Source: Acidobacteriota bacterium (GTDB lineage: Bacteria > Acidobacteriota > UBA6911). From it: a stretch of DNA of 64,000 nt. The stretch is from assembly GCA_963664705.1 (NCBI GenBank), contig OY761556.1, forward strand, positions 6,400,001 through 6,464,000, read 5' to 3'. A program made the translations under genes and the position numbers. Shown piece after piece: positions 8,347-37,605 of this stretch. How positions within the stretch are numbered: position 1 is the stretch's first letter; every line of letters starts with the position of its first letter. The notes under the pieces were generated by a model. The model saw only the letters and a program-made list of their open reading frames with translations, was not told where the DNA came from and ran no database searches.

Positions 8347-8372
8347 GCCGATTCCTCCAGAATAAGGCAAGT

Positions 8373-11848: not shown

Positions 11849-12588
11849 GCTCTCCACCCCCAGGATGCACAAATCAACGCTGGCAGGATTTCGGTTATCT
11901 CGCAGACAGCTCCGAGCGTGTCTCCTGTAAATCCGCCTATTTTTTTGCGGCACCAAAGTGAAAAAACAATTGTCATCAGGAAAACTATTCCAGCAATCAC
12001 TAGTCCAGGAATATTCATTACAAACCATGCAGCGACTGACAGAATCGATAATGCAGCAATCAGAGCCGGCCAACCCGGCCGCCCAAACACTGTGACTAAT
12101 CCTCCTTGAGTGCGGGCATAGGGAACGGCCTTCATGCCAAGCACCAAGGCGCATCGTCCGGCCAAAGGCATCAACAGAACCGCGCGCCAATGCAATAGTC
12201 CGGGCACTGAGGCCAAAGCGGAAATTTTCAGCGCCAGTACGCAGACGATGGCAATAACACCCATCGGCCCCACATGGCTGTCTCTCATAATCTCCAGAAT
12301 TCGTTCTCTGGGTCTGGAACTTAAAAAACCGTCTGCGGTATCCGCCAGCCCATCCATGTGAAAACAACCCGACACAGCCAGCATCAGGATAACCATGACG
12401 ACGTTTGCCGGAAGCGGCGGGAATAATCGGCAAACTCCGCAATCCAGGACAGCCAGCACTCCCCCGAGAATCAAGCCTACGACAGGAAAGAAAAGAACGC
12501 TCTGCCGCAGTTCTTTCTCACCGACTTGAAAACGAGAAGAGACGGGGAAAATGGTCAAAAATTGAATGGCGGCAAGCAGAGGTTTCAT
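11845..12588 (-). CDS. cobS: Cobalamin 5'-phosphate synthase
   Basis: [25 protein letters not shown] and [10 protein letters not shown]. Confidence 0.95.
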
Positions 12589-13649
12589 TTGTTCTCCTTC
12601 GAAACAGCAGCCTCTTCAAAGGAAGCTACTTCGGTGAGAACGTGCACTGCCGCTTCCACAATGTGCATGGCGAGCGCTGCGCCGGTTCCTTCGCCAAGAC
12701 GCAGGTTCAGATCAAGGAGCGGTTCTTTGTTTATATGCTGCAGAGCCCGGCGATGTCCTTGCTCAACGCTTCGATGGGCGGCAATGGCATATTCCATGCA
12801 ATTGGGCTGCAGGGTGTGCGCGATCAATGCCCCTGCGGTGGAAATCAAGCCATCTACCAAAACAGGTTTCTTCATGGAGGCAACTCCGAGAATTAGGCCC
12901 GCAATGCCGCCGATTTCGTAGCCTCCCACTTTTGAAAGCAGATCAATGGCATCGGAGGGATCTGGCCGATTTACCTGCAGAGCCTTTTCGATGATGGCTA
13001 CCTTATGTTTAAACTGCGCTTCGTCAATGCCGGTTCCATGCCCGGTAGCTTCGGCCACACTGCATCCGGTAATGGAGGCGATGATAGCGCTGCTGGACGT
13101 GGTATTGCCGATCCCCATATCTCCGGTTGCGTAGAGGTCGGTGCTTGAAGAAAGCTCGCGCGCCACAGCAATGCCGGCTTCGAGAGATTGTATTGCCTCT
13201 TCCCTGGACATCGCGGGCCCCTGCGCCATATTCCTGGTGCCGGCGCCAATCCGATGAGAAAGAATCTTGCCCGACGCCACGAGAGAGCGCAGGTCTCCTG
13301 CCACACCCATATCTACCACCACAACGCGTGCATTCGCCTGGCGCGCCAGCGCATTAATGCCTGCCCCCCCAGCTACAAAGTTTTGAACCATCTGCGTGGT
13401 AACTTCCTGCGGATATTTGCTGACGCCTTCGGTCGCTACCCCATGATCACCCGCCATTGTCACAATGGTCCGCCGCGAGACAGAAGGGTGTATAGAGCGC
13501 GTCATGCCCGCCAAATCCTCTGCAAGGTCCATAAGCCGGCCCAGCGCCCAGTATGGTATTGCCAGCTGTTCTAGTCGCGCATGGGCGGCCGCGCGCGTGG
13601 CAGAATCCTGTGGCTCAATTTGATCAAGAGTCGAAGAAAGAAGTTTCAT
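12585..13649 (-). CDS. cobT: Nicotinate-nucleotide:benzimidazole phosphoribosyltransferase
   Basis: AGDHGV, GDMGIGNTT and LRLGEGTGA. Confidence 0.95.
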   Translation of the reverse strand: MKLLSSTLDQIEPQDSATRAAAHARLEQLAIPYWALGRLMDLAEDLAGMTRSIHPSVSRRTIVTMAGDHGVATEGVSKYPQEVTTQMVQNFVAGGAGINALARQANARVVVVDMGVAGDLRSLVASGKILSHRIGAGTRNMAQGPAMSREEAIQSLEAGIAVARELSSSTDLYATGDMGIGNTTSSSAIIASITGCSVAEATGHGTGIDEAQFKHKVAIIEKALQVNRPDPSDAIDLLSKVGGYEIGGIAGLILGVASMKKPVLVDGLISTAGALIAHTLQPNCMEYAIAAHRSVEQGHRRALQHINKEPLLDLNLRLGEGTGAALAMHIVEAAVHVLTEVASFEEAAVSKENK

Positions 13650-13659
13650 TGCACAACTC

Positions 13660-14214
13660 CTATAAAGAATCTGTAAGCTGCTTGATTTCGATCGGCTGCC
13701 CGGACACCAGGAGAACTACGCGCATGCTCGCTTCAGCGATTATCTGATTGCATCTGCCGACGAGATCGCGATAAAGACGCGACAACGCGTTTTCAGGAAT
13801 GAGTCCCATCCCTATTTCGTTGGTTACAAAAATGACTGTACCCGGATGCGCTTTACATGCGGTCACGAGGCTATTGCACTCTTCGGCGATATCAGTTTCG
13901 GATATTCCCCTGCCGTTTTGTTCTGCCTGATACAAAAGGTTGTTAACCCAGAGCGTAAGGCAATCGACCAGGATTGTCGGAAACTCATGGTTATTATCAA
14001 TAACCTTTGCAGCATCCAGCGACTCCTCGATGGTATGCCATCGCTTCTGACACCGGGCATCCTGATGTTTCCGGATGCGCTCGCGCATCTCTTCATCAAT
14101 TGGCGGACATGTTGCCAGAAAGGCACGAGGTTCCGGCAGTGTCTCCGCCAACTTCTGGGCATAGGTGCTTTTGCCGCTTCGACCACCGCCGGTTATGAGA
14201 ATAATGTGTCCCAT
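13660..14214 (-). CDS. cobU: Adenosylcobinamide kinase / phosphate guanylyltransferase
   Basis: ITGGGRSGKS, RIRKHQ, LVDCLTLW and VTNEIGMG. Confidence 0.95.
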   Translation of the reverse strand: MGHIILITGGGRSGKSTYAQKLAETLPEPRAFLATCPPIDEEMRERIRKHQDARCQKRWHTIEESLDAAKVIDNNHEFPTILVDCLTLWVNNLLYQAEQNGRGISETDIAEECNSLVTACKAHPGTVIFVTNEIGMGLIPENALSRLYRDLVGRCNQIIAEASMRVVLLVSGQPIEIKQLTDSL

Positions 14215-14819
14215 GACGTTGTGTCCTCGCTGAAACATGAATGGTTGAGACCGGTCAAGACGCCTTTGCCGCCGAAGAGATCCAGAATGGTCAGCGATGC
14301 GTAGTCCACATTGAAAAGGACGTATTGCCGGGGATGAAGCCCGAGAAAATGACAGAGCAGTGCGCGGATAACGCCCGCGTGTGTAACGGCAAGAATCGTC
14401 TCTTCGGGACAGGAAACGAATGTGGATGCGGCCCGTTGAATGCGGATCAAAAAATCTTCAAGCCGCTCGCCACCGGGAAATGAAAATGCCGGACTAAAGT
14501 CCGCCCATTGATTTACGGTCTCCGGATCTGATTGCTGAATTTCGTCAAACGTTTTCCTCTCCCAAGAGCCGAAATCCACTTCTCTCAGGTCCGCATTAAT
14601 TTCGGTCGATATTCCCTGCAATGGCTGAATGGTTTCAAGGCAACGCTTAAGCGGGCTGCATAAGCAGCGACCCGGCCGATACCTTCTGATAAGAGAGATA
14701 AGAGATGCAGCTTGCCTGCGTCCATGTTCCGAGAGGCCTATATCAGTAGAACCGATGAATTGATGAAGATGCGCCGCTTCGTGTTCGGCATGCCGCAGAA
14801 GCAAGAGTTTCTTTTTCAT
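14193..14819 (-). CDS. cobC: Alpha-ribazole/adenosylcobalamin phosphatase (histidine phosphatase)
   Basis: LLRHA, SPLKRC, LREVDFGSWE and VTHAGVIR; cob operon context. Confidence 0.85.
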   Translation of the reverse strand: MKKKLLLLRHAEHEAAHLHQFIGSTDIGLSEHGRRQAASLISLIRRYRPGRCLCSPLKRCLETIQPLQGISTEINADLREVDFGSWERKTFDEIQQSDPETVNQWADFSPAFSFPGGERLEDFLIRIQRAASTFVSCPEETILAVTHAGVIRALLCHFLGLHPRQYVLFNVDYASLTILDLFGGKGVLTGLNHSCFSEDTTSWDTLFS

Positions 14820-14844
14820 TTCTTTATTCAAGGATGAAAACACG

Positions 14845-15573
14845 TCAATCCTGCGCGCGCCGGATAACAAATAAGGATAGGGTTACGAACATAACAGTAA
14901 GAATCACAAGGTAAATAAGAGCAACCCAAGGCATCGGCTGGCCTGCGGCCGCAGCCCGAATCACCTGGGATGCCGGCGTCAGTGGCAAGATCTTAATGAA
15001 CCACCGCAGCCAGGAAGGATAGGTGTCCACGGGGAAAAAAGTGCCGCAGAGAAAAGCCATAGGTGTAATAACAAAACTGGTCAGCATTCCTTGATCCGCA
15101 TGGGATCGAGCAAGCATTGCAGTACTGATCGCAAGAGCCGAAAAAACCGTTGTTGTCATAATGATCCCCAATAGCAGCACAGGAGATGGCGAGATAGGCA
15201 CGCGAAACAGAAGACCTATCAGGACAACGATAGACGCGGCAATAAATCCCCGTACAATTCCACTAACAATCTCCCCCACCACGTAAGCCCAATCGGCCAC
15301 CGGAGCCGTGCGAATCTCATCGAAGGTTTTCCAGTAGAAACGAGCAATATTGATCTCAGTTGAAAGGCCATAGCTGTTGATCATGGCGCTCATGGCGATG
15401 AGGCCGGGAAGAATAAAAAGGCTGTAATCAGTCCTTTCCGCCGAGCCCTTTCCGCCCCATCCAAAGGTGATGAAATAAAGCAGGGGCGATATGGTGAAGG
15501 AGAAGAAGTATCGCCAAAACTTCCGCTTAAGAATGATGAGTTCGCGCAACATGACTGCCAGCACCTGATGCAT
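14845..15573 (-). CDS. ABC-2 type exporter permease
   Basis: Six hydrophobic segments; FILPGL and PMAFLCGTFFP. Confidence 0.85.
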   Translation of the reverse strand: MHQVLAVMLRELIILKRKFWRYFFSFTISPLLYFITFGWGGKGSAERTDYSLFILPGLIAMSAMINSYGLSTEINIARFYWKTFDEIRTAPVADWAYVVGEIVSGIVRGFIAASIVVLIGLLFRVPISPSPVLLLGIIMTTTVFSALAISTAMLARSHADQGMLTSFVITPMAFLCGTFFPVDTYPSWLRWFIKILPLTPASQVIRAAAAGQPMPWVALIYLVILTVMFVTLSLFVIRRAQD

Positions 15574-21135: not shown

Positions 21136-21224
21136 AACTTTTACAGACAATGCGTGATGCAAGTCAAGCTAATTTCAATGTTGTTGACCCGCACCGTTGA
21201 TCGCTATATATTGGCGCCGCTTTT

Positions 21225-21393: not shown

Positions 21394-21529
21394 ATAGCTG
21401 ACGCGATCCTCGCGTTGAAATTCACGAGTCGCCGAGGGGCGGGCTGGTACCTCCCATTATTGATATATGGGCATATGTTTTTCCCCTTTTGGCTAAAACC
21501 TTGAGCGATAGCAGAAAGGGTGATCAAGC

Positions 21530-22267
21530 GTGATGGAAATTGTCGAAGAAGTGATTCCGCTACCGCGAGATAAATCTTTTGTTTGCCGGAAGTGTGATAA
21601 GACGCTCGTAGTTTCATTCGCGTTGCCGCGTCCCGTTCTCAGTTGGGCCGCCTATAACGGCGGATTTCGCACGAATGTCTCCCACGTCATCATTCATGCC
21701 GTGGACTCAATTCCGGTACAAAGCGCGCGCCAAGCGGCAAGTAGACTGGACCTGCGCGGTACCGTCGTCGGCATGATGACGCGACACGAGTTGGATTTCC
21801 AGACAGTTACGGTGGCCGAGGGAGATCTGCAGGTTTCCGCCATAGCGGTTGCAGATTGTTCAATGATGGCAACAGTCGGAGAACATCCGGTGCATCCAAT
21901 CGAAAGACCAGGACCGAATATTCACCTTACTTTATTCAATCTCATTCTGGTTACAAATTACCGCTTCACGCAAGAAGCTATGCTGGAAGCCATTTCCATA
22001 GCAACTGAAGCAAAATCCCGCGCAATCTGCGAACTGGGTCTCCATACGCGAAGCGGAGAGCTCGCCACTGGCGGCACCGCCGATTGTGTGGCTATGGTTT
22101 CGGGTCTTGATCGGCGCTATGAATGCTGCTCCAAAGAGGAGGCGTGGGGAATGCTGATTGGACGGGCCTCGCTCGAATGCATGCGAAGGGCGCTGGCCGG
22201 CAGTGCTGCTGTTTCACATTCGATCCAGCGAGCCCAATTTTGTCATCGAACCACAAAAGCCCTCTAA
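21530..22267 (+). CDS. cbiZ: Adenosylcobinamide amidohydrolase-like protein (short CbiZ)
   Basis: VLSWAAYNGG, VGMMT, EAISIATEAK and ATGGTAD; lies downstream of a B12 riboswitch. Confidence 0.75.
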   Translation: MMEIVEEVIPLPRDKSFVCRKCDKTLVVSFALPRPVLSWAAYNGGFRTNVSHVIIHAVDSIPVQSARQAASRLDLRGTVVGMMTRHELDFQTVTVAEGDLQVSAIAVADCSMMATVGEHPVHPIERPGPNIHLTLFNLILVTNYRFTQEAMLEAISIATEAKSRAICELGLHTRSGELATGGTADCVAMVSGLDRRYECCSKEEAWGMLIGRASLECMRRALAGSAAVSHSIQRAQFCHRTTKAL

Positions 22268-22945
22268 CGCTATGCTTGATGTGACAATGGCACAAGTTGC
22301 CGGACCGGCGCTTTCCCACAGGACAGAAATATCAAACCCAGATATCAGTCTGGTGTGTAATCCGGTTTCTTCCTCCAATACGTGCAACTCCCAGCCAATC
22401 CCCCGCGAGCCGCAAGGGATCACATCTCCTATACCTGTATTCTCGCGCAATTGACGAATCTGCCTGGGAGTCGGCAATACAGCCAGGTTCACAAGCACTT
22501 CTTCTCCAACATAAGGTTTCCCGAGCAAATACACATCGTCTCCCGCTTGAGCAAGCCGCCACGAAAGCTGCTTGCATTCGCCGAGAAGCGTGATTCCTAT
22601 CGCTGTAATATTGGTTGGTACATTATCTTCAGTGCTTCCTCCCCATGAAAGGTCCGGATATCCGGAATCGGCAAGCTCAGCTTGTATTCCGGATAATAAT
22701 CGGGTGCCTGTCGGTTCACGCTCATTGCATGTCAATGCCATCAGTGAGAAAGGAACAGCACCTACCGACAGTGTCTCCATCAGACAGACGCGCGCTGTCA
22801 TACGACCGCATAATTCGGGCGCTACTTGGATTGCATCGCCCGGTTTCATCCCGAGGCCACCCAAGCTATCGGCGGCAATGGTGAGGAAGCCCTCCTTTTG
22901 CTGGTATACCAGAATATCGCGCGATGTCTGCACCAATGGGATCAT
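22214..22945 (-). CDS. cblS: Alpha-ribazole kinase (CblS-like, PurM/AIR-synthase fold)
   Basis: RD...IAADSLGGLGMKPGD, TARVCLME, GSTEDN, PCGSRGI and SAGPATC. Confidence 0.75.
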   Translation of the reverse strand: MIPLVQTSRDILVYQQKEGFLTIAADSLGGLGMKPGDAIQVAPELCGRMTARVCLMETLSVGAVPFSLMALTCNEREPTGTRLLSGIQAELADSGYPDLSWGGSTEDNVPTNITAIGITLLGECKQLSWRLAQAGDDVYLLGKPYVGEEVLVNLAVLPTPRQIRQLRENTGIGDVIPCGSRGIGWELHVLEEETGLHTRLISGFDISVLWESAGPATCAIVTSSIALEGFCGSMTKLGSLDRM

Positions 22946-23946
22946 TATTCGTCCTTCACATTGGGATGAACTCCGGCCATGGCATTTCGCTGGAGGCAGA
23001 TTTTGCCCAACCATTCTTCGCGCGACCTGTACGAAAATTCGTAGGTCACATAGGCGGGATCAATTACGTCAAAAAGGCCAGCAATGGCCGGATCCTCAAA
23101 AGGATCATGATGATCAATCCGGTTTACGTGATCGATTGCCTGATGGTATCGATCCCAGAAAGTCCCGGTTGCTACTGGAGGTGACGGTAGCACGAGGGTT
23201 TTCGCCACATATTCCGCCGAAAGACTTCGCGTCAGATGAACTCCGCGGATAGTTCGGCGAGCCTCTCCCAAGGAACGCACAGACCGAATAAGGAATTCGA
23301 TACCCGCTGCTTCCGTAAAAATGCTCTGGTTGGTATTCAGCATATGCCCTGTGTCAAAAACAACTCCGGTATGTGGGTAAGTGATGCGTTCCATCGCATA
23401 CTCGATTTCTTCCGGGTGTAGCGCTCGGAAACTTCCCGGCCACCATAAATTTTCAAGGAGCAAGTCGCCGCGAAACGGAGAATCGGCAAGGACTGCATTC
23501 AGCAGTTCCGCACACATATCTACCGTATCGCGCCAATCCCAGGGAAACTGCCAGTTGTATATGTAATCGAATTCGCTTTGTGCCAGATGAAAAACGGCAT
23601 ACGCACATCCAAGCTGATGTGCAAGTGTCAATTGGCGCCGGTAGTTCGCTATCAGCGACTCGCGCGTTGGTCCTCCATAAAATGTTGAAACCGTCTCCGA
23701 GTCACCGAATATTTCCAGCAGGCGCCGGTTGTCCTCAGTCCAGAATGGCCTGAGAATCGGGTAGAAGCGCAGATGCATCCCGATGATCAATCCTTTGGGA
23801 ATAGTCTCCCATGCATGTTCACCTACTGGATATAATTCAAATCCGTCAAACCCTTCGGCTTCCAGAATTCCTCGAGCATTGTTCCAGTCGTGGCCAATAA
23901 TCGCCTGGTCACCGGGATGAGTGCTGATATTCAACGCGAACTTCAT
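22945..23946 (-). CDS. Xylose-isomerase/AP-endonuclease-2-like TIM-barrel protein
   Basis: Metal-ligand motifs GMHL, AVFH, LENLWWPG, FDTGH, GVHL, DHHDP and YE. Confidence 0.8.
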   Translation of the reverse strand: MKFALNISTHPGDQAIIGHDWNNARGILEAEGFDGFELYPVGEHAWETIPKGLIIGMHLRFYPILRPFWTEDNRRLLEIFGDSETVSTFYGGPTRESLIANYRRQLTLAHQLGCAYAVFHLAQSEFDYIYNWQFPWDWRDTVDMCAELLNAVLADSPFRGDLLLENLWWPGSFRALHPEEIEYAMERITYPHTGVVFDTGHMLNTNQSIFTEAAGIEFLIRSVRSLGEARRTIRGVHLTRSLSAEYVAKTLVLPSPPVATGTFWDRYHQAIDHVNRIDHHDPFEDPAIAGLFDVIDPAYVTYEFSYRSREEWLGKICLQRNAMAGVHPNVKDE

Positions 23947-23982
23947 TCAGGAGAGTTCCTTTCTCTTAAGGCGGCACTTGTT

Positions 23983-25533
23983 TTATTTCGTCGGTTTTAA
24001 ATCCAAGGTGTCTCGGCGGAGAAGAAGATTGTAGTCAAAGCGATCGTAAAACCGTTTATTCCTGCTCTTCGAAGCATCCAGCCTCATTGAACACGCGCCC
24101 TTGCCGTAAGCAGCGGCCTCATCCCATCGATGGTGGCTGTCCGTGGGAGCACAGACTATGGCTTTGTTGCTGCTGGCCGCTGCGATATAGAGTTGTTCGA
24201 TGCTCCTGGTTGCCAGAGCTCGGCTCATCTGCTCGCTAAGCTCTTTCCCAGTTGATGCCACTGCTATATCACAGCCAAGCTTTGCTCCCGCCAAAGCAAG
24301 TTCGGGATGCATCAGCTCTTCAGCACAGGCAAGCAGAACTCTCGCCCCGGCGATATCCGCAATGCAGAGCTTGTCTGTGGCGTTCTTTCCCATTGGCTGA
24401 TGGTGTCGGATGATGCGGCCTGAGGCTTCGGCGAGAATCATGGTACAGTTGTCCGGATTTGAATTGTCCAGAAATCCAGCGCACACATCTACGCCACGGC
24501 GTGTTGCAACCGCGGCGAGAATATTCTCCGCTTCAGCGATCGAAGAAGCTTTGCCGGCGGGCAATACCAGAAGGCGCGCATCCGGTCCTGAAGTTGCGCT
24601 GTTAAGAATGTTCTCAATCGCCAAAGAAGAAAAAACCTGCTCGGGAGGCAGCACTGCAGAAATCAGGATGCGTTCTACGGGTTTTGGAAGCTCATAATAT
24701 GATGTTAGATCGGCAGCGTAGCGCATATCCAGGTACATCGGCGTATAGAGATGCGGAGTTCTTGATTGGAGTCGCTCCAAGGAAAGGCTCGCGAGTCTTC
24801 CGTTGTACAACGGCAGGCATGCATAAAATATTTTAGAGTCCGTACTGCTCTCCTGCACAAGAGTCTCTCCATACGGTGTGTAGCAGCATGATTTTGCATT
24901 AAGAAATTCCATAGTGCGGTCGGTCCCGCACCGATTGCAGGCGGCGATATAAACCCCATTTTCAAAGGCCCTGGATTGCCAGAGTTCTGCCGGGTCGAGA
25001 GGATCCGACGGCCAATTGGCTGGAACCAAAATGATGTCCGCTCCTCTCAGAGCCGTGGTACGCGGGATGGCCCCGAAATAGGTGTCGGAACAAATAAGGA
25101 TTCCCGCCCGTCCCCATGGAGTCTCAAATGTATTCTGCTGTTGAGGATCTCCCGGGCAAGCCCACCGCACCTCCGCTGATGTTTTCCGATAATGGCAAAC
25201 AATATTGCCTCCGGGCGAAAGAGCCGATGCTGCATTATAAAAAATGCCGGTTGCATCATCGCGTTCCGCATAACCCACAACGATATAGGCTCCATGCTCG
25301 GACGCAATGCCTGCGAGCGCATGGATTAGTGGCCCGTCCATTGTTTGAGCCGCGCCCGCGATATCGTCACATGATCGAAAACTGTAGCCGGAAATGCAAA
25401 GTTCGGTATTAACAATGATCTTTGCACCAGCCTCCGCAGCCTTGCGATTGAGCGATATCAGTTCTCTTAGGTTATGCTCCGGCTGATTGTAGCGAACGTT
25501 TAGATGAACCAGCCCGATCTTCAGTAGTTCCAT
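23983..25533 (-). CDS. Carbon-nitrogen hydrolase (nitrilase superfamily) with a degenerate second domain
   Basis: Catalytic triad motifs NTELCISGY, YRK and ICSD; C-terminal half retains only remnants (LACAEELMHPE...KLGCD). Confidence 0.82.
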   Translation of the reverse strand: MELLKIGLVHLNVRYNQPEHNLRELISLNRKAAEAGAKIIVNTELCISGYSFRSCDDIAGAAQTMDGPLIHALAGIASEHGAYIVVGYAERDDATGIFYNAASALSPGGNIVCHYRKTSAEVRWACPGDPQQQNTFETPWGRAGILICSDTYFGAIPRTTALRGADIILVPANWPSDPLDPAELWQSRAFENGVYIAACNRCGTDRTMEFLNAKSCCYTPYGETLVQESSTDSKIFYACLPLYNGRLASLSLERLQSRTPHLYTPMYLDMRYAADLTSYYELPKPVERILISAVLPPEQVFSSLAIENILNSATSGPDARLLVLPAGKASSIAEAENILAAVATRRGVDVCAGFLDNSNPDNCTMILAEASGRIIRHHQPMGKNATDKLCIADIAGARVLLACAEELMHPELALAGAKLGCDIAVASTGKELSEQMSRALATRSIEQLYIAAASSNKAIVCAPTDSHHRWDEAAAYGKGACSMRLDASKSRNKRFYDRFDYNLLLRRDTLDLKPTK

Positions 25534-25659
25534 ACATGACTCCAAGGGATGCTGAACAGGAGATGCACGCATCTCTGACAAAATATCATCGCGGGTTTAA
25601 GGTTGAGCCTTGTGCGGACTTAAGAAGACCGTCTGGCACCCCTGATCCCGGAGGCATTC

Positions 25660-25745
25660 GTCCTCTGACTGATAGATCGTCCGATAGGGCGTCTAAACAC
25701 AGTTACGGGTATAGTCTCGGATTCTCACCGAATTCCCTGCCAAAA
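25660..25745 (-). ncRNA. Cobalamin riboswitch 3, short (class II-like) form
   Basis: Minus strand AGGGAATTCGGTGAGAATCCGAGACTATACCCGTAACTGT...short hairpin...AGTCAGAGGAC; lacks the GCCACTG/GGGAAG peripheral extension. Confidence 0.72.
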
Positions 25746-25877
25746 ATCCGTAATCAAATATCATTGCCGTTTCAGAAATGTCAACGAATTTGATTTTTGT
25801 GAAAACCCGAACGTGGATTCAAAAAGCGCTTGACTTCAAAGCGACTTGTTTGTAATTTCGCATTTCGATCGCTCTTT

Positions 25878-26013
25878 TAAATATGATCAGGGAAGACGGT
25901 AGAAGCCGTCGCGGACCCGCCGCCGTAACCGGGGACGAAAGCTGCAGAATGCCACTGTCTGATTGGATGGGAAGGCGCAGCAAGTAGAACGATCCGGGAG
26001 CCGGAAGACCTGA
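25878..26013 (+). ncRNA. Cobalamin riboswitch 4 (first of a tandem pair before btuB)
   Basis: AGGGAAGACGGTAGAAGCCGTCGCGGACCCGCCGCCGTAA...GCCACTG...GGGAAGGC...AGCCGGAAGACCTG; TTGACT-N17-TAATTT promoter at about 25830. Confidence 0.9.
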
Positions 26014-26073
26014 ATGCTTTGCGCCTCGCGGAATGGGCGTTGCACCTGATGTATAACGAGGATGAAAAACGGC

Positions 26074-26117: not shown

Positions 26118-26164
26118 GGCTTGTCAATATTCTTAATGAGGTGATGCACAAAAATTGACCATGT

Positions 26165-26355: not shown

Positions 26356-28320
26356 ATGAGAAGATTTCGTTTCGTTTTGCCCTTAGTGGCATTGCTGTTG
26401 ATTTTTCACTTCGTGCCTGCCCTGATCGCTCAGGATTCAAGCAATTCCAAGCCGTCGACGAGCGATAAATCCAATGAACACCAATACCAGCTTGAGGAGC
26501 TTGTAGTAACCGCAACCAAAGTGGAGACCCCCACAAAGGAAATTGGAAGTTCCATAACTGTTATTACAAGCCAAGAGATTGCGGAAAAGCAGCAGTCAAG
26601 CGTCCTCGATGTCCTGCGCTCCGTACCATCGCTGGATGTTGCTCGAAGTGGCGGTATGGGTCAGACAACTTCAGTATTCATGCGCGGCGCCGATTCCGAA
26701 CACACGCTGGTTCTCATAGACGGAGTCGAGATGAATGACCCCATTTCAGCCGGGCGTTCCTTTGATTTCGCAAACCTCACTACCGACAACATTGAGCGCA
26801 TTGAAATATTGCGCGGCCCGCAAAGCACTCTTTATGGATCCGACGCCATCGGCGGTGTAATCAACATCATCACAAAAACCGGAGAGGGCAAACCAAACGG
26901 GTTCTTTTCAGTTGAAGGTGGATCTTTTAAATCATTTAGGGAAGCTGGTGGGCTTAATGGAGGCAATCAACGAATCAAGTATTCCGTAGGCTTTTCTAGA
27001 CAGGATACTGATGGAATTTCCGCTGCCGGAGAAAAATACGGGAACTCCGAAAAGGATGGGTATGGAAACACTTCCGTTTCGGCGAAACTCGGTATAACGC
27101 CAGTTCATAATCTCAATGTTGACATAATTTTCAGGCGGATAGACGCCAAGGCAGACATAGATTCTATCGGAGGGCCTGGAGGTGACGACCCAAATGACAC
27201 CACCAGTTCCACTGAACACTATGTCAGAGCACAAACGAGACTTTCACTGTTTCACAATATCTGGGATCAGAAAATCGGGTTTTCGCTAACCAACAATAGC
27301 CGAACCTATAAAAATGAAACTGATGCAGCACATCCGTATGATAGCGATCACTCTTCCTACGATGGAAACATTTATAAGTTCGACTGGCAAAATAATTTCA
27401 ATATTCACCGGACGAATGTGCTGACAGCCGGATTGGAGACTGAACAGGAAAAAGGCAAATCGGATTATTATTCGACGAGTGCCTATGGACCCTACTCCAG
27501 TATCTTCCCGGAAAAAACAGCCCGCACCAACGGCTACTATCTTCAGGATCAGGTAAAATTGTGGGGATCGTGGTTTACCACTCTTGGAGTTCGGCTGGAT
27601 GACCATAGCAGGTTCGGTACAAAATCGACATACCACTTTGCATCCGCCTATGTTTTTGAGAAAACCGGAACAAAAATCAAGGGCAGCTATGGAACCGGAT
27701 TCAAAGCACCTTCGCTCTATCAGCTTTATTCCACCTACGGCGATGAAAATCTGAAGCCGGAAGAAAGCACAGGATGGGATCTTGGATTGGAGCAGTCGCT
27801 CGTTGGCCAAAGAGTAACAATCGATGCCACTTATTTTCACAACGATTTCGAAAACCTGGTGGATTTCAACAGCGCGACCTACAGGTACACGAACATCGCC
27901 AAAGCCAAGACGCAGGGAGTCGAATTATCTGCATCTATCCATGCAAGTGAATCACTGGTCCTCCGTGGAAGTTACACATATACGGATACGGAGGATAAGG
28001 ATACAGGGCTTGCGCTTCTTCGAAGGGCAAGAAATAAGGCCGGGCTCGACGCAAATTATCGGCTGTCGACAAAAGCAAATCTCAATTTGGGGGTTCACTA
28101 TGTGGGGAAAAGATCGGACGTTGATTATTCCGCCTATCCCTACCCGCGTGTAGAAATGCCGGGGTATGTGCTGGCAAACATAGCGGCTTCATATAATTTA
28201 ACAAGGAATTTTCAGGTTTTTTGTCGCATAGACAATCTTTTGAACCGCGACTATGAAGAGGTAAAGGGTTACGGGACGCCTGGAATTTCTGCGTTTGGCG
28301 GAATAAGGATCCCCTTTTAG
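26356..28320 (+). CDS. btuB: TonB-dependent cobalamin receptor
   Basis: Signal peptide, TonB box ELVVTAT, plug motifs LIDGV and IERIEILRGPQSTLYGSDAIGGVINI, C-terminal Phe; B12 riboswitches upstream. Confidence 0.9.
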   Translation: MRRFRFVLPLVALLLIFHFVPALIAQDSSNSKPSTSDKSNEHQYQLEELVVTATKVETPTKEIGSSITVITSQEIAEKQQSSVLDVLRSVPSLDVARSGGMGQTTSVFMRGADSEHTLVLIDGVEMNDPISAGRSFDFANLTTDNIERIEILRGPQSTLYGSDAIGGVINIITKTGEGKPNGFFSVEGGSFKSFREAGGLNGGNQRIKYSVGFSRQDTDGISAAGEKYGNSEKDGYGNTSVSAKLGITPVHNLNVDIIFRRIDAKADIDSIGGPGGDDPNDTTSSTEHYVRAQTRLSLFHNIWDQKIGFSLTNNSRTYKNETDAAHPYDSDHSSYDGNIYKFDWQNNFNIHRTNVLTAGLETEQEKGKSDYYSTSAYGPYSSIFPEKTARTNGYYLQDQVKLWGSWFTTLGVRLDDHSRFGTKSTYHFASAYVFEKTGTKIKGSYGTGFKAPSLYQLYSTYGDENLKPEESTGWDLGLEQSLVGQRVTIDATYFHNDFENLVDFNSATYRYTNIAKAKTQGVELSASIHASESLVLRGSYTYTDTEDKDTGLALLRRARNKAGLDANYRLSTKANLNLGVHYVGKRSDVDYSAYPYPRVEMPGYVLANIAASYNLTRNFQVFCRIDNLLNRDYEEVKGYGTPGISAFGGIRIPF

Positions 28321-28423
28321 CCGCAGAGATGGCCCCGCATTGCTATTCGCATTTGGCCGTGATTCACGGGCTTGGCGAGGCGGGAAGCAATGCGGGGCCA
28401 TCGTATCCCGGCATTTGTCGAAT

Positions 28424-29662
28424 ATGATGAAACAACCAAAACGCATGTGGTGCTTGTTGGCCGGTCTCTGGATGTTCGCAGCATGCGGAGGCTGCAGCAT
28501 CGTGAAGCATGGAGATTCTGAAGCCGAGGCGCCTCAATCCACCGCTTTAACTATTCCCCATCCAACTCTCGACCAGCATGCAAGTACCACCTCGATTCGA
28601 TACGCCAAGGGATTCACTCTGGAACAACGGCAGGGATACAGATTAATGCGGGTGCTTACTCCCTGGCGTGATGCGAAAACAACATTTTCCTATGCGCTTG
28701 TACGGCGCGGCGAAAAAATTCCTCAAATAGAGCCTGGTGCCGTCGTGGTAGAAACTCCGGTGCGCCATATTGTTTTGGCAAGCACAACCTTCATTGTTTA
28801 TTTCGCCATGCTTGGCTTGGAGGATTCCGTTGTCGGAATATCGGGATGCAAGATGGTCAACACGCCTTCAATTGCCGCCCGCATTCATGATGGACGAATT
28901 CTGGAGGTCGGCGACGGCAGCATGAGCGCAAAGAGTTTCAACATGGAGAGGTTGTTCAACCTTCAGCCCGATCTCCTCATGATTTATGGAACAGGCAATC
29001 CGGAATACGATCAACAGAACAAGCTTCAGGAAGCAGGCTTTCATGTAGCCGTCAATTCCGAATATATGGAGACAACGCCTCTCGGTCGAACGGAGTGGAT
29101 CAAGTTTATTGCGGCCTTTTTCAATAAGGATGCTGAGGCGGATCTCCTGTTCACAGATATCGTCGCACGATACGAGAAACTGGCTGAAAAGTCTCGCAAC
29201 GTTACAATGAGGCCGACGGTATTCTGCGGATCAAACTGGCGGGGTTCTTGGCATATGCCGGGGGGAAATAGTTATGTCGCAATGTTTCTCCGCGACGCCG
29301 GAGCAAGGTATCTCTGGAGCGATGATCAAAGCACGGGCAGCATGCCGCTGAATGTTGAATCCGTTATTGCGCGGGCGAAAGATGCTGATTTCTGGCTCAA
29401 TCCCGGCGTTCACCGCTCCAAAGAGGAGATAGCGGGAGAAGATGACCGTTATCCGGTATTTCGTGCTTTCCGAACCGGCCGTGTATTCAACAACAATGCA
29501 ATTGTGGATGCCGGAGGAGGCAACGACATCTGGGAAACAGGAATCGCGAATCCGGACAAAGTACTGGCGGACCTGATCAGCATATTTCACCCGGAGCTTC
29601 TGCCTGGCCATCAACGCACGTGGTTTTGGCAGCTTCCAGAAAAAGCAATCGAGCAGAAATGA
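28424..29662 (+). CDS. btuF: Cobalamin ABC transporter substrate-binding protein (likely lipoprotein)
   Basis: IRYAKGF, EYMETTPLGRTEWIKF and DLISIFHPE; operon context. Confidence 0.82.
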   Translation: MMKQPKRMWCLLAGLWMFAACGGCSIVKHGDSEAEAPQSTALTIPHPTLDQHASTTSIRYAKGFTLEQRQGYRLMRVLTPWRDAKTTFSYALVRRGEKIPQIEPGAVVVETPVRHIVLASTTFIVYFAMLGLEDSVVGISGCKMVNTPSIAARIHDGRILEVGDGSMSAKSFNMERLFNLQPDLLMIYGTGNPEYDQQNKLQEAGFHVAVNSEYMETTPLGRTEWIKFIAAFFNKDAEADLLFTDIVARYEKLAEKSRNVTMRPTVFCGSNWRGSWHMPGGNSYVAMFLRDAGARYLWSDDQSTGSMPLNVESVIARAKDADFWLNPGVHRSKEEIAGEDDRYPVFRAFRTGRVFNNNAIVDAGGGNDIWETGIANPDKVLADLISIFHPELLPGHQRTWFWQLPEKAIEQK

Positions 29663-30738
29663 CAGCTACAAAGCATTCGGCAACACAGATCACACTATTT
29701 CCCCGTGTCCGTCCTGCCATATGGTTTGGCCTTATTTTATTGTTTGTGGCTGCTTTGGCATTGGAACTTGCGCTTGGGTCTCTCATGATCCCAATTAAAA
29801 GTGTAATTTCCATTTTGCTCGGAAGAAATGATGTTCCGGAGGGATGGCGGCAGATTGTTTTGCTTTTCCGCCTTCCGCGGGCTTTTACCGCTGCATTGGC
29901 GGGAGCAGCTTTGGGAATTGCCGGTTTGAAAATGCAAACTCTCTTTCGCAACCCTCTGGCCGATCCTTTTGTATTGGGCATAAGTTCCGGGGCCGGATTG
30001 GGTGTTGCATTAGTCGTTTTGGCAGCTGGAGGAATTGGATGGAAATCCATAGTGGCCAAGACAGGGCTTTTGGGAAATGCTTCCATAATCATTGCCGCAA
30101 TCGTGGGTGCCGCTATTGTGATGGGAATTGTGCTCGGAGTTGCGCGCAAGGTTGAAAACTCTCTGACATTGCTGATCGTCGGTTTGATGTTTGGCTACAT
30201 CTCCAGTTCTCTCGTCAATGTGCTCATGCAATTTTCTATGGAACATCAGATGCAAAGCTACATCACATGGACTTTCGGATCCTTTGCCGGTGTAACCTGG
30301 CGACAATTGGCCGTGTTTGCTCCTGTAGTGATTGTCGGAATTCTTCTGGCGTGGCTGCTGGCGAAACCGCTAAATGCTCTATTGTTGGGAGACAGCTACG
30401 CCCGCAGCATGGGAGTGCACGTCCAATACGTTCGCAATTTCATCATTATAGGAACTGCTTTGCTGGCCGGTTCGGTTACGGCATTTTGCGGCCCGATCGG
30501 ATTCCTGGGAATTGCTGTGCCGCACTTGAGCCGCATGCTTTTAAAAACCGGAGATCACCACACACTGGTCCCGGCAGTGATGTTACTGGGATCGGTACTG
30601 GCAATGCTGGCCGATATTATTTCGCAAGTGCCCGGCACGCAAATCTCCTTGCCTTTAAATTCCGTCACGGCTCTGATCGGCGCTCCCGTTGTTGTCGGAG
30701 TCATTCTCAGGCGACGCCACGTTATGGAGGCGGCATAA
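29659..30738 (+). CDS. btuC: FecCD/BtuC permease
   Basis: RLPR, QTLFRNPLADPFVLGISSGA and GPIGFLG. Confidence 0.9.
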   Translation: MTATKHSATQITLFPRVRPAIWFGLILLFVAALALELALGSLMIPIKSVISILLGRNDVPEGWRQIVLLFRLPRAFTAALAGAALGIAGLKMQTLFRNPLADPFVLGISSGAGLGVALVVLAAGGIGWKSIVAKTGLLGNASIIIAAIVGAAIVMGIVLGVARKVENSLTLLIVGLMFGYISSSLVNVLMQFSMEHQMQSYITWTFGSFAGVTWRQLAVFAPVVIVGILLAWLLAKPLNALLLGDSYARSMGVHVQYVRNFIIIGTALLAGSVTAFCGPIGFLGIAVPHLSRMLLKTGDHHTLVPAVMLLGSVLAMLADIISQVPGTQISLPLNSVTALIGAPVVVGVILRRRHVMEAA

Positions 30739-31787
30739 TGACGGAATCCGCAGTTATTCATCTTGAAAATGTGACAATCGGATATCGGCAGCATAGGCAT
30801 CCGCAACGGATAGTGGCGAAGAATATTTCGGTCGCCTTAAACGCAGGAGAATTTGTTTGCCTTCTTGGGCCCAACGGTGCAGGAAAATCCACGCTGATTC
30901 GAACGATCTCAGGTATGCAACCGCCCCTGACTGGAGTGGTTAGACTCGATGGGAAACATCTATCATCCTATTCATCCCGAGAACTAGCTCAGCGCATGAG
31001 CCTTGTCCTGACTCAGCGCGCCGCTGTGGGAATGATGTCCGCGTCCACATTGGTATCTCTCGGTCGGCATCCCTATACCAGTTGGACTGGGAAACTCGGT
31101 GCCCATGATGTGGAAGCCGTTCAAGCAGCAATGGCTGCAGTTGGAATCGAAACACTGGCGCACCGTCCTGTTTGTGAACTGAGCGATGGAGAGCGACAAA
31201 AAGTGATGATCGCCCGCGCTCGGGCTCAGGATCCTCAGGTGATGATTCTAGATGAAGCAACAGCATTTCTTGATTTGCCGCGCCGCGTCGAATTCATGCA
31301 TTTGCTTCGTCGTCTTGCTCCTGCCGGTAAGCGGGCAATTCTTCTTTCGACGCATGATCTCGATCTGGCATTACGATGCGCAGATCGACTCTGGCTGCTT
31401 CCACCTGGCGGTCCCCTGCAACAAGGTGCGCCGGAAGATCTGGTGCTGACCGATGCTCTTGCATCTGCTTTCCGGGACGCTGAGGTGAAGTTTAATAAAG
31501 AGTCCGGTGCATTCCAGCATCGGCGCGGCGATCGGGGAAGTATTGCCCTGCATGGCGAAGATGTTCCGGCGATGTGGACCTATCGAGCACTGGAAAGAGC
31601 AGGCTATAGGGTTGTTGCTCCCGGTGAAGCACAAACCTGTGTTGAGGTCCGGCACGAAGGCGATTCGATTGTCTGGAATATCCGGGAGATAGACAGGTCC
31701 CGCTGCAATTCAGTTGAGGCATTGCTGGCGCAGCTGCGACTGATCGAGGTGAAAGGAACGGCGAATGCGTCTGGGCACCTACTATGA
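30738..31787 (+). CDS. btuD: ABC ATPase of the cobalamin importer
   Basis: GPNGAGKST, LSDGERQK, ILDE and STHD. Confidence 0.9.
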   Translation: MTESAVIHLENVTIGYRQHRHPQRIVAKNISVALNAGEFVCLLGPNGAGKSTLIRTISGMQPPLTGVVRLDGKHLSSYSSRELAQRMSLVLTQRAAVGMMSASTLVSLGRHPYTSWTGKLGAHDVEAVQAAMAAVGIETLAHRPVCELSDGERQKVMIARARAQDPQVMILDEATAFLDLPRRVEFMHLLRRLAPAGKRAILLSTHDLDLALRCADRLWLLPPGGPLQQGAPEDLVLTDALASAFRDAEVKFNKESGAFQHRRGDRGSIALHGEDVPAMWTYRALERAGYRVVAPGEAQTCVEVRHEGDSIVWNIREIDRSRCNSVEALLAQLRLIEVKGTANASGHLL

Positions 31788-32943
31788 CGGTGTGGAATTA
31801 CATCGCGAAGATAAGATAGTTTATGCGCGGTTTTTGCTTCCGCACCGGGTGATATCTACTTGCCCGGCTGCAGGCGGACTGAGGGACAATCTCGTATACC
31901 TATACAATCATCAATCTTGCGAGCCGGCAGGACACAATCCGTCCATCCATCGCCTTGTTTCCCACGATCCTCAAACCTATCGGCGCCTGATTTGTCGTCA
32001 GCATGCACTGACGGATCAGGATTGCGCCACGTTGGGTACCGCAGCCAATATGCGCTACGCCGCAATCAAGGTAGCTGGTTTCTGTGATCTCACGGTTGTT
32101 GCCGTTTGCACCGGCGGAGTCGAAACCAATGCCGGACGCGCAGGCGATCCTGCGTCTGTGTATGAATGCAATGGATCTTATGAAAAGGTCTCGGTGGAAG
32201 AACCTGTATTGCACGGCACCATCAATACCATGCTGTTCATTAGTCATGAATTGACGGAAGGAGCCATGGTGCGTGCCGTTATTACGGCAACCGAAGCAAA
32301 AACGGCTGTCTTGCAGGAACTCGCTGTTGGTTCACGCTATTCCACAGGATTAGCGACAGGCACAGAAACAGATCAAATCGGGGTTGCCGCACGGCTGAAC
32401 ACTGATTCAATCCTGACCGGTGCTGGGAATCACTGTGTTTTAGGCGAGTTCATCGGAAAGACCGTACATGATGCTGTTCTGGAAACGTTGAAGCTCCAGA
32501 ACTCCTTGACTTCGGAAAGCTGTCGTTCGACTGTTTATCATTTGCAAAGATTTGGTGTTACGCGCGAATCCTTGATTCACGATGTAAATTTACATCTTTC
32601 CGGCGACAAAGCAGCTCTTTTTGAGAACAATTTTGTGGTAGTGGAACGAGATCCACTGGTTGTCGCCGCTATTGCAGCTCTTGTGCACATCCATGATGAA
32701 ATCACATGGGGCATTCTTCCTTCCGGATGTGTGCCCGAGCTATGGGCAACCTATGGCGCACAGATAGCCGCTGCAATATCGGGAGATTATACTCGCTTGC
32801 CCGGCTATCGGGATGTCCTCGCTGCTGCCCAGAGCTCGGCATTAGCCAGGGATTTTTTACAGCTGGTCGCGCGTGCCATAGCAATTGGATTTTCAGAAAA
32901 ATGGGAGGATACAGACATAGAAGCCGCAGCAATTATGGAATAG
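31765..32943 (+). CDS. cbiZ: Adenosylcobinamide amidohydrolase (long CbiZ)
   Basis: NHQSCEP, LGTAANM, TGGVETNAGRAGDPA, GTINTML, TATEAK and ATGTETD. Confidence 0.88.
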   Translation: MRLGTYYDGVELHREDKIVYARFLLPHRVISTCPAAGGLRDNLVYLYNHQSCEPAGHNPSIHRLVSHDPQTYRRLICRQHALTDQDCATLGTAANMRYAAIKVAGFCDLTVVAVCTGGVETNAGRAGDPASVYECNGSYEKVSVEEPVLHGTINTMLFISHELTEGAMVRAVITATEAKTAVLQELAVGSRYSTGLATGTETDQIGVAARLNTDSILTGAGNHCVLGEFIGKTVHDAVLETLKLQNSLTSESCRSTVYHLQRFGVTRESLIHDVNLHLSGDKAALFENNFVVVERDPLVVAAIAALVHIHDEITWGILPSGCVPELWATYGAQIAAAISGDYTRLPGYRDVLAAAQSSALARDFLQLVARAIAIGFSEKWEDTDIEAAAIME

Positions 32944-33373: not shown

Positions 33374-34684
33374 ATGTCTACTCAGGTTGAACTGGCATCA
33401 CAAGGAATCATCACACCAGCAATCCAGGAAATCGCAGCACAGGAAGGTCACGAGCCTGAAACCATCCGTCAACGCATTGCGGACGGCCAGATCGTGGCTC
33501 CGCTCAATTCAAGCAGGCCATGCCGCGTTGTCGGCATCGGTATGGGGCTTCGCTCCAAGGTCAATGCAAGCATCGGAACATCAACCGACATCATCGATAT
33601 TGATGCCGAAGTCCGAAAAGCAAAGGCTGCCGAAGCGGCCGGCGCGGATACTTTGATGGAGCTTTCCGTGGGAGGTGATCTCAACGCCGTCCGTCGTGAA
33701 GTCCTTGCTGCCGTAAATCTGCCGGTTGGAAATGTTCCGCTGTACCAGGCATTCTGCGAAGCAACTCGCCGGCATGGCGACCCGAATAAACTTGATGAAG
33801 AGCTGTTGTTTGATCTCATCGAGCAACAATGCGCGGATGGGATTGCCTTCATGGCCGTTCACTGTGGGATCAACCTGTACACGATCGAGCGGCTCGAACG
33901 CCAGGGCTATCGCTATGGCGGGCTTGTCAGCAAGGGCGGCACATCCATGGTTTCATGGATGAAGGCGAATAAACGGGAAAATCCGCTCTATGAGAAGTTC
34001 GACCGCGTGGTGGGAATCCTCAAAAAATACGACACAGTGCTTTCTCTTGGGAACGGTCTTCGCTCGGGAGCTATTTGGGATTCCTTCGATCGCGCGATGG
34101 TACAGGAGCTGCTCATCAACTGCGAGCTTGCCGAACTCGGGCGCAAGATGGGTTGCCAGATGATGGTGGAAGGGCCGGGACACGTTCCCATTGACGAGAT
34201 CGAGGCAAATATCATTTTGCAGAAGCGCATGAGCAACAACGCACCCTACTACATGCTGGGGCCGATTCCGACCGATGTCGCCGCCGGGTATGATCATGTA
34301 GCGGCCGCAATCGGCGCAGCTCACAGCGCCCGATACGGAGCAGACCTCATCTGCTATATTACTCCTTCCGAGCACCTCGCTTTGCCGAACGAGGCGGATG
34401 TCGTCGAAGGCGTTCGCGTCGCCCGTGTGGGCGCATATATCGGCGACATGGCCAAGTACCCGGAAAAAACTAAATCAAGAGATAGAGCCATGAGCAAAGC
34501 GCGACGCGATCTGGACTGGAACGGGCAGTATACCAATGCCCTGTTTCCTAAGGAAGCCAAGGCGATCCGCGACAGCCGCGTGCCCAACAATAAGGAAGTG
34601 TGCACGATGTGCGGCGATCTTTGCGCCAACAAAGCCTCTTTCAATCTGTTCCGACATCTGCTCGACGGGACGGAGAAAGCCTGA
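33374..34684 (+). CDS. bzaF: 5-hydroxybenzimidazole synthase (ThiC paralogue)
   Basis: ThiC fold KVNASIGTS, VEGPGHVP and CTMCGDLC; B12 riboswitch upstream and bzaCDE-like genes downstream. Confidence 0.85.
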   Translation: MSTQVELASQGIITPAIQEIAAQEGHEPETIRQRIADGQIVAPLNSSRPCRVVGIGMGLRSKVNASIGTSTDIIDIDAEVRKAKAAEAAGADTLMELSVGGDLNAVRREVLAAVNLPVGNVPLYQAFCEATRRHGDPNKLDEELLFDLIEQQCADGIAFMAVHCGINLYTIERLERQGYRYGGLVSKGGTSMVSWMKANKRENPLYEKFDRVVGILKKYDTVLSLGNGLRSGAIWDSFDRAMVQELLINCELAELGRKMGCQMMVEGPGHVPIDEIEANIILQKRMSNNAPYYMLGPIPTDVAAGYDHVAAAIGAAHSARYGADLICYITPSEHLALPNEADVVEGVRVARVGAYIGDMAKYPEKTKSRDRAMSKARRDLDWNGQYTNALFPKEAKAIRDSRVPNNKEVCTMCGDLCANKASFNLFRHLLDGTEKA

Positions 34685-34691
34685 ATCAGCA

Positions 34692-36260
34692 ATGAGCATT
34701 CCTTACCTGCATACAGATATTGCTTCCGAGGATTTCCAGATTCTTGAAGATCTCGCTACTGCGAGCTGGTATTCGGAGGTTCTTTTCGCTGCCATCGAGC
34801 TCGGCATATTCGAAGCGCTATCGGAGAATCCACGGTCATCGGAGGATCTCGCAACAAAGCTGGACTATGATCGTGACAGCATGGCCCGCTTCCTGGAAGT
34901 GCTGGGTTCTTTAGGGCTCATCGTGGTTCGCGACGGGAATTACGAAAACGGCCCGCTCGCTGCAAGATTTCTGGTGCGTGGCAGCGAATGGTATGCAGGG
35001 CATTTCCTCGATTACAGAAAATTCCTCGCTCCTGGCTGGAAACGGCTTCCGGCCAGGATTCGCTCAGGCGTATCCGCCAACAACAGACCAGAGACCGAAG
35101 CGCCCGAAGTCTACCAGGAAAGAGTTTTTGCTTATGTTCGTGCTATGGATTTCCAGGCCCGGATCAAGGCAGAGAGTGTTTTGCGGAATCCATCTCTTCT
35201 TGCTGAGACAAGCGTGCAGAGTCTGCTCGATATCGGTGGAGGAGCCGGCGCATGGTGTAGGGCGCTGCTCGTGAAATGGCCTGAGGCTCGCGCGCTGCTG
35301 CTGGATCTTCCGGAAACTCTTGCGGCTGCCCAAAGACTATATCCCAATACAACCAGCTGGAAAGGAATCGAAATGATTGCCGGCGATGGACTCGCTCTGG
35401 ATATCGGGAGCCGGAAATTCGACCTCGTAATCCTTTCAAATATCCTTCATGCATACGGGAAAGCCGAGGCAGCTCAACTGCTGAACGAAGCTGTACAAGC
35501 CCTTGCGCCGGGCGGACAGATTCTGATTCATGACTATTTGGCGGATGGACACAGGTCCAGCCCTTTGAAGGGCAGACTCTACGATCTGCACATGCTGCTC
35601 AACACATACAATGGACGAATCTATTCTCTTGAGGAACTCCAGAAAATGCTTTCTGCTGCAGGCATCGAAAATAGCCGCCTCTTTCATCTTGAAACCGACA
35701 CATCAATTCTACTGGCTTCGAAGGATGGATCAAGCAAGCACCAGTCGTTGGATGACGGCGACATGGCCGAGGCGCATGCCAAAGCGGTCGGCTTCAACTA
35801 TGCGCGAGTTATCGAAGCTCGTGAGATCGTTACGGAACCCTGGGTCAGGATCAAGTGCGAACAGGGATGTGCTCACTTCGGCAATTCATTGAGCTGTCCT
35901 CCCCATTCGCTCAGCCTTGAGAAAATGCGGGAAGTATTATCAACATACACCCATGCTCTGCTGGTCCAGGCAACTCCGCCCCCTCAATCATTCCACGAAC
36001 GGCTTCTGGCTCTCGAGCGCGATTTGTTTCTTAATGGCCATCCCGAAGCGCTTGCATTCGGCGCCGGTCCATGCCCGGTTTGCCCAACTTGTTCAACCGA
36101 CGGCAAGTGTCGATACCCCGACCTCGCAAGACCATCGCTTGAAGCGTGTTGTGTGGATGTTTATGAGACCGCCCACCGTGCAGGGCTTGCACTGGAACCC
36201 CTTCGTCACCCAATGAGCTACGTGAAGTATGTTGGGCTCGTGCTTTTTAGGAAGAGGTGA
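34692..36260 (+). CDS. bzaC: O-methyltransferase fused to a Cys-rich DUF2284-like domain
   Basis: Dimerisation domain, LLDIGGGAG and ILSNILH; C-terminal KCEQGC, SCPP, GPCPVCPTC and RPSLEACCVD. Confidence 0.82.
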   Translation: MSIPYLHTDIASEDFQILEDLATASWYSEVLFAAIELGIFEALSENPRSSEDLATKLDYDRDSMARFLEVLGSLGLIVVRDGNYENGPLAARFLVRGSEWYAGHFLDYRKFLAPGWKRLPARIRSGVSANNRPETEAPEVYQERVFAYVRAMDFQARIKAESVLRNPSLLAETSVQSLLDIGGGAGAWCRALLVKWPEARALLLDLPETLAAAQRLYPNTTSWKGIEMIAGDGLALDIGSRKFDLVILSNILHAYGKAEAAQLLNEAVQALAPGGQILIHDYLADGHRSSPLKGRLYDLHMLLNTYNGRIYSLEELQKMLSAAGIENSRLFHLETDTSILLASKDGSSKHQSLDDGDMAEAHAKAVGFNYARVIEAREIVTEPWVRIKCEQGCAHFGNSLSCPPHSLSLEKMREVLSTYTHALLVQATPPPQSFHERLLALERDLFLNGHPEALAFGAGPCPVCPTCSTDGKCRYPDLARPSLEACCVDVYETAHRAGLALEPLRHPMSYVKYVGLVLFRKR

Positions 36261-36263
36261 GCA

Positions 36264-37601: not shown

Positions 37602-37605
37602 GCAT

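Follow-up and report, generated by a model that had tools for sequence, protein, structure and literature searches.

A short cobalamin riboswitch heads three genes in an Acidobacteriota genome

We analyzed a 64,000 nt stretch of an Acidobacteriota bacterium genome (GenBank assembly GCA_963664705.1, contig OY761556.1, positions 6,400,001 to 6,464,000; hereafter the window, in whose coordinates all positions are given), focusing on a minus-strand gene trio for which an earlier reading of the letters alone, here termed the original prediction, had proposed a role in dismantling cobamides. As described there, three co-oriented open reading frames (ORFs) encoding a C-N hydrolase, a TIM barrel protein and a CblS-like kinase, in that order, lie 3' of a short cobalamin riboswitch without the P6 accessory region (25653..25750, minus strand). 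The riboswitch matches RF00174 at 25660-25736 with 29.4 bits (E 1.1e-5), the core P3-P6 being matched and 53 model positions skipped, and it was missed in a scan with cut-offs because this score lies just below the gathering threshold of 31.5; a covariance model of our own scores it at 26.2 bits. An equivalent short riboswitch heads the equivalent three genes in loci L003 and L120, and the core of the L003 element is near-identical to that of the window, with diverged flanks. Since the folding energy of the whole leader is not unusual (z 0.10), support for the riboswitch comes from the covariance models and from conservation. Just 5' of it lies a sigma70-like promoter (TTGACA-16 nt-GATATT; 25757..25784, minus strand) whose TTGACA element is kept in L003; with four such sites found against 4.5 expected in shuffled sequences, the motif count is no evidence alone.

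The first gene encodes a two-domain nitrilase-superfamily amidase (PF00795, E 5.5e-37). Its longest ORF spans 23983-25581 (minus strand), but translation likely begins at the ATG at 25533, where a GGAG ribosome-binding site is present and homologues also start, yielding a 516 aa protein from Met17 of the longest ORF (23983..25533). The second gene (22945..23946, minus strand) encodes a 333 aa AP-endonuclease-2 TIM barrel (PF01261, E 5.5e-12, 46.4 bits, cut-off 31.1) with ENLWWPG and DTGH motifs, a member of a B12-linked family and likely, by prediction, a cobamide phosphodiesterase. Its TAA stop shares base 22945 with the ATG of the third gene (TAATG), so that the abutting stop and start noted originally are in fact a 1 nt overlap. 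This third gene (22214..22945, minus strand) encodes a predicted alpha-riboside kinase of 243 aa with a PurM/AIRS-type fold. Curated families returned no match for it and Pfam only a faint one to AIRS (E 0.027), so the label CblS-like derives from genomic context and from a 60%-identity homologue named alpha-ribazole kinase by NCBI, rather than from direct comparison with a characterized CblS. It belongs with PurM/AIRS-like kinases homologous to CblT-linked genes, and distant homologues adjoin energy-coupling factor (ECF) S components and cob genes.

The TIM barrel belongs to a family separate from CbiR

The original prediction had likened the barrel to CbiR, the phosphodiesterase of Akkermansia muciniphila that converts adenosylcobalamin to cobinamide-phosphate and alpha-ribazole in an EDTA-sensitive reaction (Mok et al., 2020, 10.1101/2020.09.02.280537; PMC7733943). 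The two share the PF01261 fold, an equal strand order of His, Glu and Asp residues, cob/btu surroundings and a slot beside CblS-like kinases. The identification of the barrel as CbiR itself was nevertheless rejected. Against the CbiR hidden Markov model (HMM) NF041277, the barrel scores 17.6 bits with a cut-off of 105. Profile comparison with hhalign relates the barrel family to 11 CbiR proteins with a probability of 65%, no better a match than that to Escherichia coli endonuclease IV (Nfo; 57%). In a quick tree of 44 rows, which carries a long-branch warning, 17 family members share a long branch that is separate from the 13 CbiR-like rows. Barrel proteins are also longer (about 330 aa with Trp-rich insertions, compared with about 260 aa), carry D-x-H where CbiR has D-H, and are without its second strand-7 His. 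No gene in the source genome scores above the NF041277 cut-off, and elsewhere the two proteins often share a genome.

By Foldseek, the closest structural likeness is to endonuclease IV. An AlphaFold2 model of the barrel (predicted local distance difference test score of 94) forms a (beta/alpha)8 barrel, and endonuclease IV structures (PDB 1qtw, 4hno) fill the first ten rows of the Foldseek results; in sequence searches of the PDB, neither the barrel nor the kinase had a significant hit. Of 200 close homologues, 194-199 retain each of nine residues (H58, H120, E165, D198, H201, H237, D278, H280 and E303), the exceptions being mostly gaps, and 128 of 131 distant representatives retain all nine, counted over full-length proteins with shorter and longer hits excluded. 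Five of them align directly with H109, E145, D179, H182 and H216 of E. coli Nfo, the D-x-H spacing is shared as well, and CbiR carries a parallel strand-by-strand His/Glu/Asp pattern. In Nfo, the nine corresponding residues are the ligands of three zinc ions; with the remaining four barrel residues matched through strand order and spacing, the barrel would have a phosphodiesterase-type set of metal ligands, probably for three metals. In other respects the barrel differs from endonuclease IV: identity is 12-16%, the endonuclease IV model TIGR00587 has no match to the window protein at E up to 0.1 (the homologue in L060 reaches 22.8 bits, cut-off 129.65), the surroundings are those of B12 metabolism instead of DNA repair, and the source genome encodes a separate Nfo-like gene.

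The family comprises 224 representatives at 50% identity (E up to 1e-30) and 480 confirmed stretches in GTDB contigs, from Chlorobi, Desulfobacterota, Ferrimonas, Bacillota, Fusobacterium and Methanococcus maripaludis, under generic database names such as 'TIM barrel protein'. The closest barrel-bearing relative of the source genome is labelled Acidobacteria. Among 160 sampled Desulfobacterota genomes just one carries the barrel, and a phylum-wide profile is therefore uninformative. Long ORFs in L027, L030, L039, L051 and L056 were considered as fusions and dropped, as none contains a second Pfam domain and a start set too early probably explains their length; proteins of 673-2000 aa yielded no fusion either, which is weak evidence. 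P0172, in which part of a barrel is attached to a fragment of CobN, is a singleton on a 2.4 kb contig and was not used. No description of the family was found in the literature on CbiR and remodelling, CblS, C-N hydrolases and B12, or cobalt-free salvage, a survey in which most subscription papers were not covered. Weak family members could be among the 282 BLAST hits of the CbiR paper (PMC7733943).

Barrel genes are linked to B12 genes across genomes

To assess genomic context, we scored B12 markers within 9 kb of the barrel in the best 80 genome loci. A cobamide gene occurs in 58 of them, a cobalamin riboswitch in 34 and either marker in 64; a weak baseline is provided by the source genome, in which 42 of 1,376 windows (3%) contain such markers. 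Linkage of the homologues to B12 genes, one of the points by which the original prediction was to be judged, is thus widespread. In nine loci (six Chlorobi and three Bacillota, one of the nine with an intervening small ORF) a riboswitch lies at most 450 nt upstream of the barrel itself, and in Ferrimonas the gene order is cobS-barrel-cbiB. Upstream of stand-alone Bacillota barrel genes, the search for riboswitches returned just one degenerate element (L065, E 0.12).

Genome-wide searches covered 50 of the 80 loci, picked for long contigs and diversity; later searches omitted two limited genomes and took in G123. Many of these carriers are draft genomes, and related genomes are not independent. 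CobU was found in 48 of 49 carriers, compared with 8 of 61 genomes in a search of relatives (both carriers included). CbiZ is present in 31 of the 49, and cbiZ lies within 26 of the 80 barrel loci. It was not found in 18 carriers, among them all five Ferrimonas searched, and in 17 neither CbiZ nor CbiR was found, yet CobU is present. Of the two co-occurrences that the original prediction had singled out, the one with cobU thus holds nearly throughout the carriers, and the one with cblS does not, as detailed below.

The barrel and CbiR occupy equivalent slots beside CblS-like kinases

The kinase adjoins the barrel in only two of the 80 barrel loci. The complete trio, seen only in the window, L003/L112 and L120, was rejected as a conserved unit. 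We also considered the association from the side of the kinase, using 88 loci (the best 80 of 404 metagenome hits plus eight from genomes), a set biased to close relatives. Within 1 kb of the kinase, 52 loci have an ECF S component alone, 14 the barrel, seven CbiR, one CbiR together with an ECF S component, and 14 none of these, nine of the latter having short flanks. After clustering at 90%, the 70 remaining loci are distributed as 42, nine, six, one and 12, respectively. In a FastTree phylogeny, the CbiR-paired kinases and all but one of the barrel-paired kinases fall in a single clade (support 99, 21 rows), within which the importer is kept only in the L145/L146 cluster. All three of the CbiR neighbours tested score above the curated cut-off.

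CblS and CblT salvage external alpha-ribazole, as described by Shelton et al. (PMC6461909). The window kinase resembles that system in belonging to a PurM-like family whose distant members sit beside ECF S components and cob genes, and differs from it in having no adjacent transporter and in its partner, which would be a source of riboside inside the cell. A kinase clade without an importer needs an internal source of riboside; CbiR supplies one, and the barrel occupies the equivalent slot. In our analysis this apparent partner swap is the strongest functional clue for the barrel. The proposal that the barrel acts on cobamides thus gains from its B12 linkage, its phosphodiesterase-type ligands and its pairing with a kinase in the place where CbiR pairs with sister kinases.

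Separately, in loci L134-L146 a short divergent CbiR comes directly after a CblS-like kinase; the three such CbiR proteins tested score 107-155 bits. The available portion of the CbiR paper (PMC7733943) contains no mention that we found of a CblS-CbiR pairing.

The barrel is a probable second cobamide phosphodiesterase

The B12 linkage of 64 of 80 loci, the presence of CobU in 48 of 49 carriers and a kinase clade paired with either CbiR or the barrel lead us to consider the barrel, with somewhat better than even confidence, a second cobamide phosphodiesterase that releases alpha-riboside. All activities named here are predictions that build on what was observed: the arrangement of the genes, the riboswitch, the fold, the conserved residues and the linkage across genomes. 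Under B12 scarcity the riboswitch would permit expression of the operon. Like CbiR, though from an unrelated AP-endonuclease-2 branch, the barrel would be a metal-dependent phosphodiesterase that cleaves the ribose 3'-O-P bond of imported cobamides, giving cobinamide-phosphate and alpha-riboside. CobU and CobS would then rebuild the cofactor with a base from the bza genes and CobT, and the coupled CblS-like kinase would re-phosphorylate the freed riboside, which would also limit the loss when a usable cobamide is cut. Taken whole, this scheme of barrel cutting under B12 shortage, CobU/CobS rebuilding with a bza-derived base and kinase recycling is the account that we favour, at the same modest confidence.

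Several observations weigh against this account. Regarding the catalytic site, the other four barrel ligands were paired with Nfo H69, D229, H231 and E261 through strand order and spacing only, and VIA-align ranks sugar isomerases level with endonuclease IV (Z 17-19), so that the fold alone is not decisive. Sixteen of the 80 loci lack a strict B12 marker (of these, several are truncated and two lie close to genes for B12-dependent aminomutases), and distant members in Fusobacterium and Acetoanaerobium, fetched separately, have no B12 neighbour. The loci are also phylogenetically clustered, with Chlorobi holding six of the nine direct riboswitches. The barrel could instead be an ordinary sugar-phosphate isomerase or nuclease in an incidental B12 neighbourhood, as its structural ties with isomerases, the generic database names and the stand-alone members without B12 context would allow. 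Direct riboswitch control in Chlorobi and Bacillota, the 64/80 linkage, the additional His/Asp ligands of endonuclease IV type and the separate Nfo-like gene in the genome speak against it, and we regard this explanation as very unlikely.

The kinase association is likewise limited. A CblS-like kinase was found in just eight of 48 carrier genomes, and barrel-kinase pairing is, apart from one convergent case (L174), in essence confined to a single clade, amounting to about one partner swap. Moreover, true CbiR also occurs in 13 of the 49 carriers, and in L008 (8056-9972) true CbiR and the barrel are divergently adjacent, beside cobU and cobS. This coexistence, which suggests a different substrate or specificity for the barrel, is the main fact that the phosphodiesterase reading leaves unexplained. 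It would be accommodated if the barrel were instead to hydrolyse a fragment, either the CbiZ by-product aminopropanol-phospho-riboside, which would supply CblS with free riboside and CbiB with aminopropanol-phosphate, or alpha-riboside-3'-phosphate. Endonuclease IV possesses 3'-phosphatase activity, cbiZ is found within 26 of the 80 loci and in 31 of the 49 genomes, and such a role would account for the CblS pairing equally well. CbiZ is missing, however, from 18 of the 49 carriers, including the five Ferrimonas, where the barrel lies inside the cob operon, and we consider fragment hydrolysis improbable, if not to the same degree as an isomerase.

If the barrel does cleave intact cobamides, as we favour, it would add another enzyme to those counted in current predictions of B12-analogue remodellers (CbiZ, CbiR and some CobS), and it would explain importer-less CblS-like kinases as recyclers of intracellular riboside. 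Assays published for CbiR are directly reusable for the barrel.

The C-N hydrolase accompanies CbiZ

The Glu-Lys-Cys catalytic set that defines the nitrilase superfamily is intact in the N-terminal domain of the amidase, which is predicted to be active (E60, K133 and C164 in long-ORF numbering) and, together with E137, invariant in 11 of 11 homologues. The protein scores under the cut-off of every named nitrilase subfamily, and its closest structures are amidases. Comparison of its N- and C-terminal halves with hhalign gives a probability of 37% (E 3.7e-4), and the second domain is likely degenerate as judged from its sequence. A cyanide hydratase acting on cyano-B12 was also considered and is disfavoured, with cyanide (di)hydratases reaching 26-32 bits compared with 140 for archaeal amidases.

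The amidase is present in 20 of 49 carriers, compared with 5 of 160 sampled Desulfobacterota. All 20 amidase-bearing genomes have CbiZ, encoded adjacently in many Chlorobi, and the window itself holds two cbiZ genes flanking the operon. The barrel and CbiZ would share a remodelling purpose, and differ in fold and in the bond targeted. The idea of a route parallel to CbiZ found no support in this comparison, since co-occurrence indicates that the hydrolase complements CbiZ and does not replace it. We tentatively propose that it is an accessory amidase acting beside CbiZ on corrinoid amide bonds; this is the weakest step of the predicted mechanism, and we would rather doubt than trust it.

The amidase is also riboswitch-controlled in its own right and is repeatedly found together with cobN, chlI/chlD and a gene for a SPASM radical S-adenosylmethionine (SAM) enzyme, heading riboswitch-controlled chlD-chlI operons that continue to cobN in L211 and L212. 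These operons would fit a rescue of cobalt-free or damaged corrinoids, in which barrel, amidase and CbiZ strip the substrate to the a,c-diamide stage, allowing cobalt insertion by the CobN-ChlI-ChlD chelatase and reassembly of the cofactor through CobO, CobQ and CbiB. The occurrence of cobN in 31, chlI in 26 and cobO in 15 of the 80 barrel loci agrees with such a rescue, as does the retention of cobB and cobQ in a source genome whose ring-synthesis genes were undetected; cobN was, however, also undetected there, and the Ferrimonas loci are without the chelatase module, making the rescue as poor a candidate as the isomerase. A broader version would have the barrel and the two-domain amidase as the missing enzymes of a B12-repressed corrinoid dismantle-and-rebuild pathway of anaerobes, in which corrinoids that are foreign, damaged or cobalt-free would lose their nucleotide loop and peripheral amides and be rebuilt into the cell's own cobamide. 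Partners would be CbiZ, CobN-ChlI-ChlD, a nitrogenase-like pair and the SPASM radical SAM enzyme. We rate this version as unlikely, a little behind fragment hydrolysis.

Anaerobes (L007, L014, L025, L038, L060, L210-L212, L217 and L219) were observed to have a module cobN-chlI-chlD-radical SAM/SPASM-ABC2-cbiZ that is associated with riboswitches and in some cases includes the amidase; some of these anaerobes also carry the early-insertion genes cbiD or cbiK.

The operon lies in a B12 salvage island

Six full cobalamin riboswitches in the window exceed the Rfam cut-off. A cbiZ-like gene (21530..22267, plus strand; PF01955, E 8e-25) converges on the operon behind a riboswitch of its own (21208-21409; RF00174, 109.8 bits). 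Rebuilding genes assigned with NCBIfam and Pfam (cobC, cobU, cobT, cobS, cobD-cobQ, cbiB, cobO and cobB) occupy 6458..14870 on the minus strand, and the import genes btuB-btuF-btuC-btuD with the second cbiZ lie at 26356..32943 on the plus strand, behind tandem riboswitches 5' of btuB (25845-26319, plus strand). A bza-like benzimidazole synthesis operon (33374..39105, plus strand; riboswitch 33061-33253) comprises bzaF/B-, bzaC-, bzaD- and bzaE-like genes, with TIGR04386 and TIGR04385 matches that are both below cut-off, and is likely the source of the replacement base. In the single-contig source genome, which retains cobB and cobQ without detectable ring-synthesis genes, tblastn found none of cbiD, cbiJ, cbiC and cobN; a second btuB-like receptor and a second cobQ-like gene are encoded elsewhere (G000:C1, about 5863700-5867000).

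Upstream of the cob salvage genes, a NifH-NifD/E-like fusion and a NifK-like gene (16471-19972, minus strand) lie under a riboswitch at 20974-21150, and in L007, L015, L033, L040, L074 and L082 the pair is again found close to the barrel; from sequence it is a putative B12-repressed, nitrogenase-like reductase. An ABC ATPase appears to be split into a 173 aa ORF and a downstream piece (15527-16434, minus strand), and a cobalamin riboswitch also precedes nrdDG, encoding the B12-independent anaerobic ribonucleotide reductase (39151-42277, minus strand).

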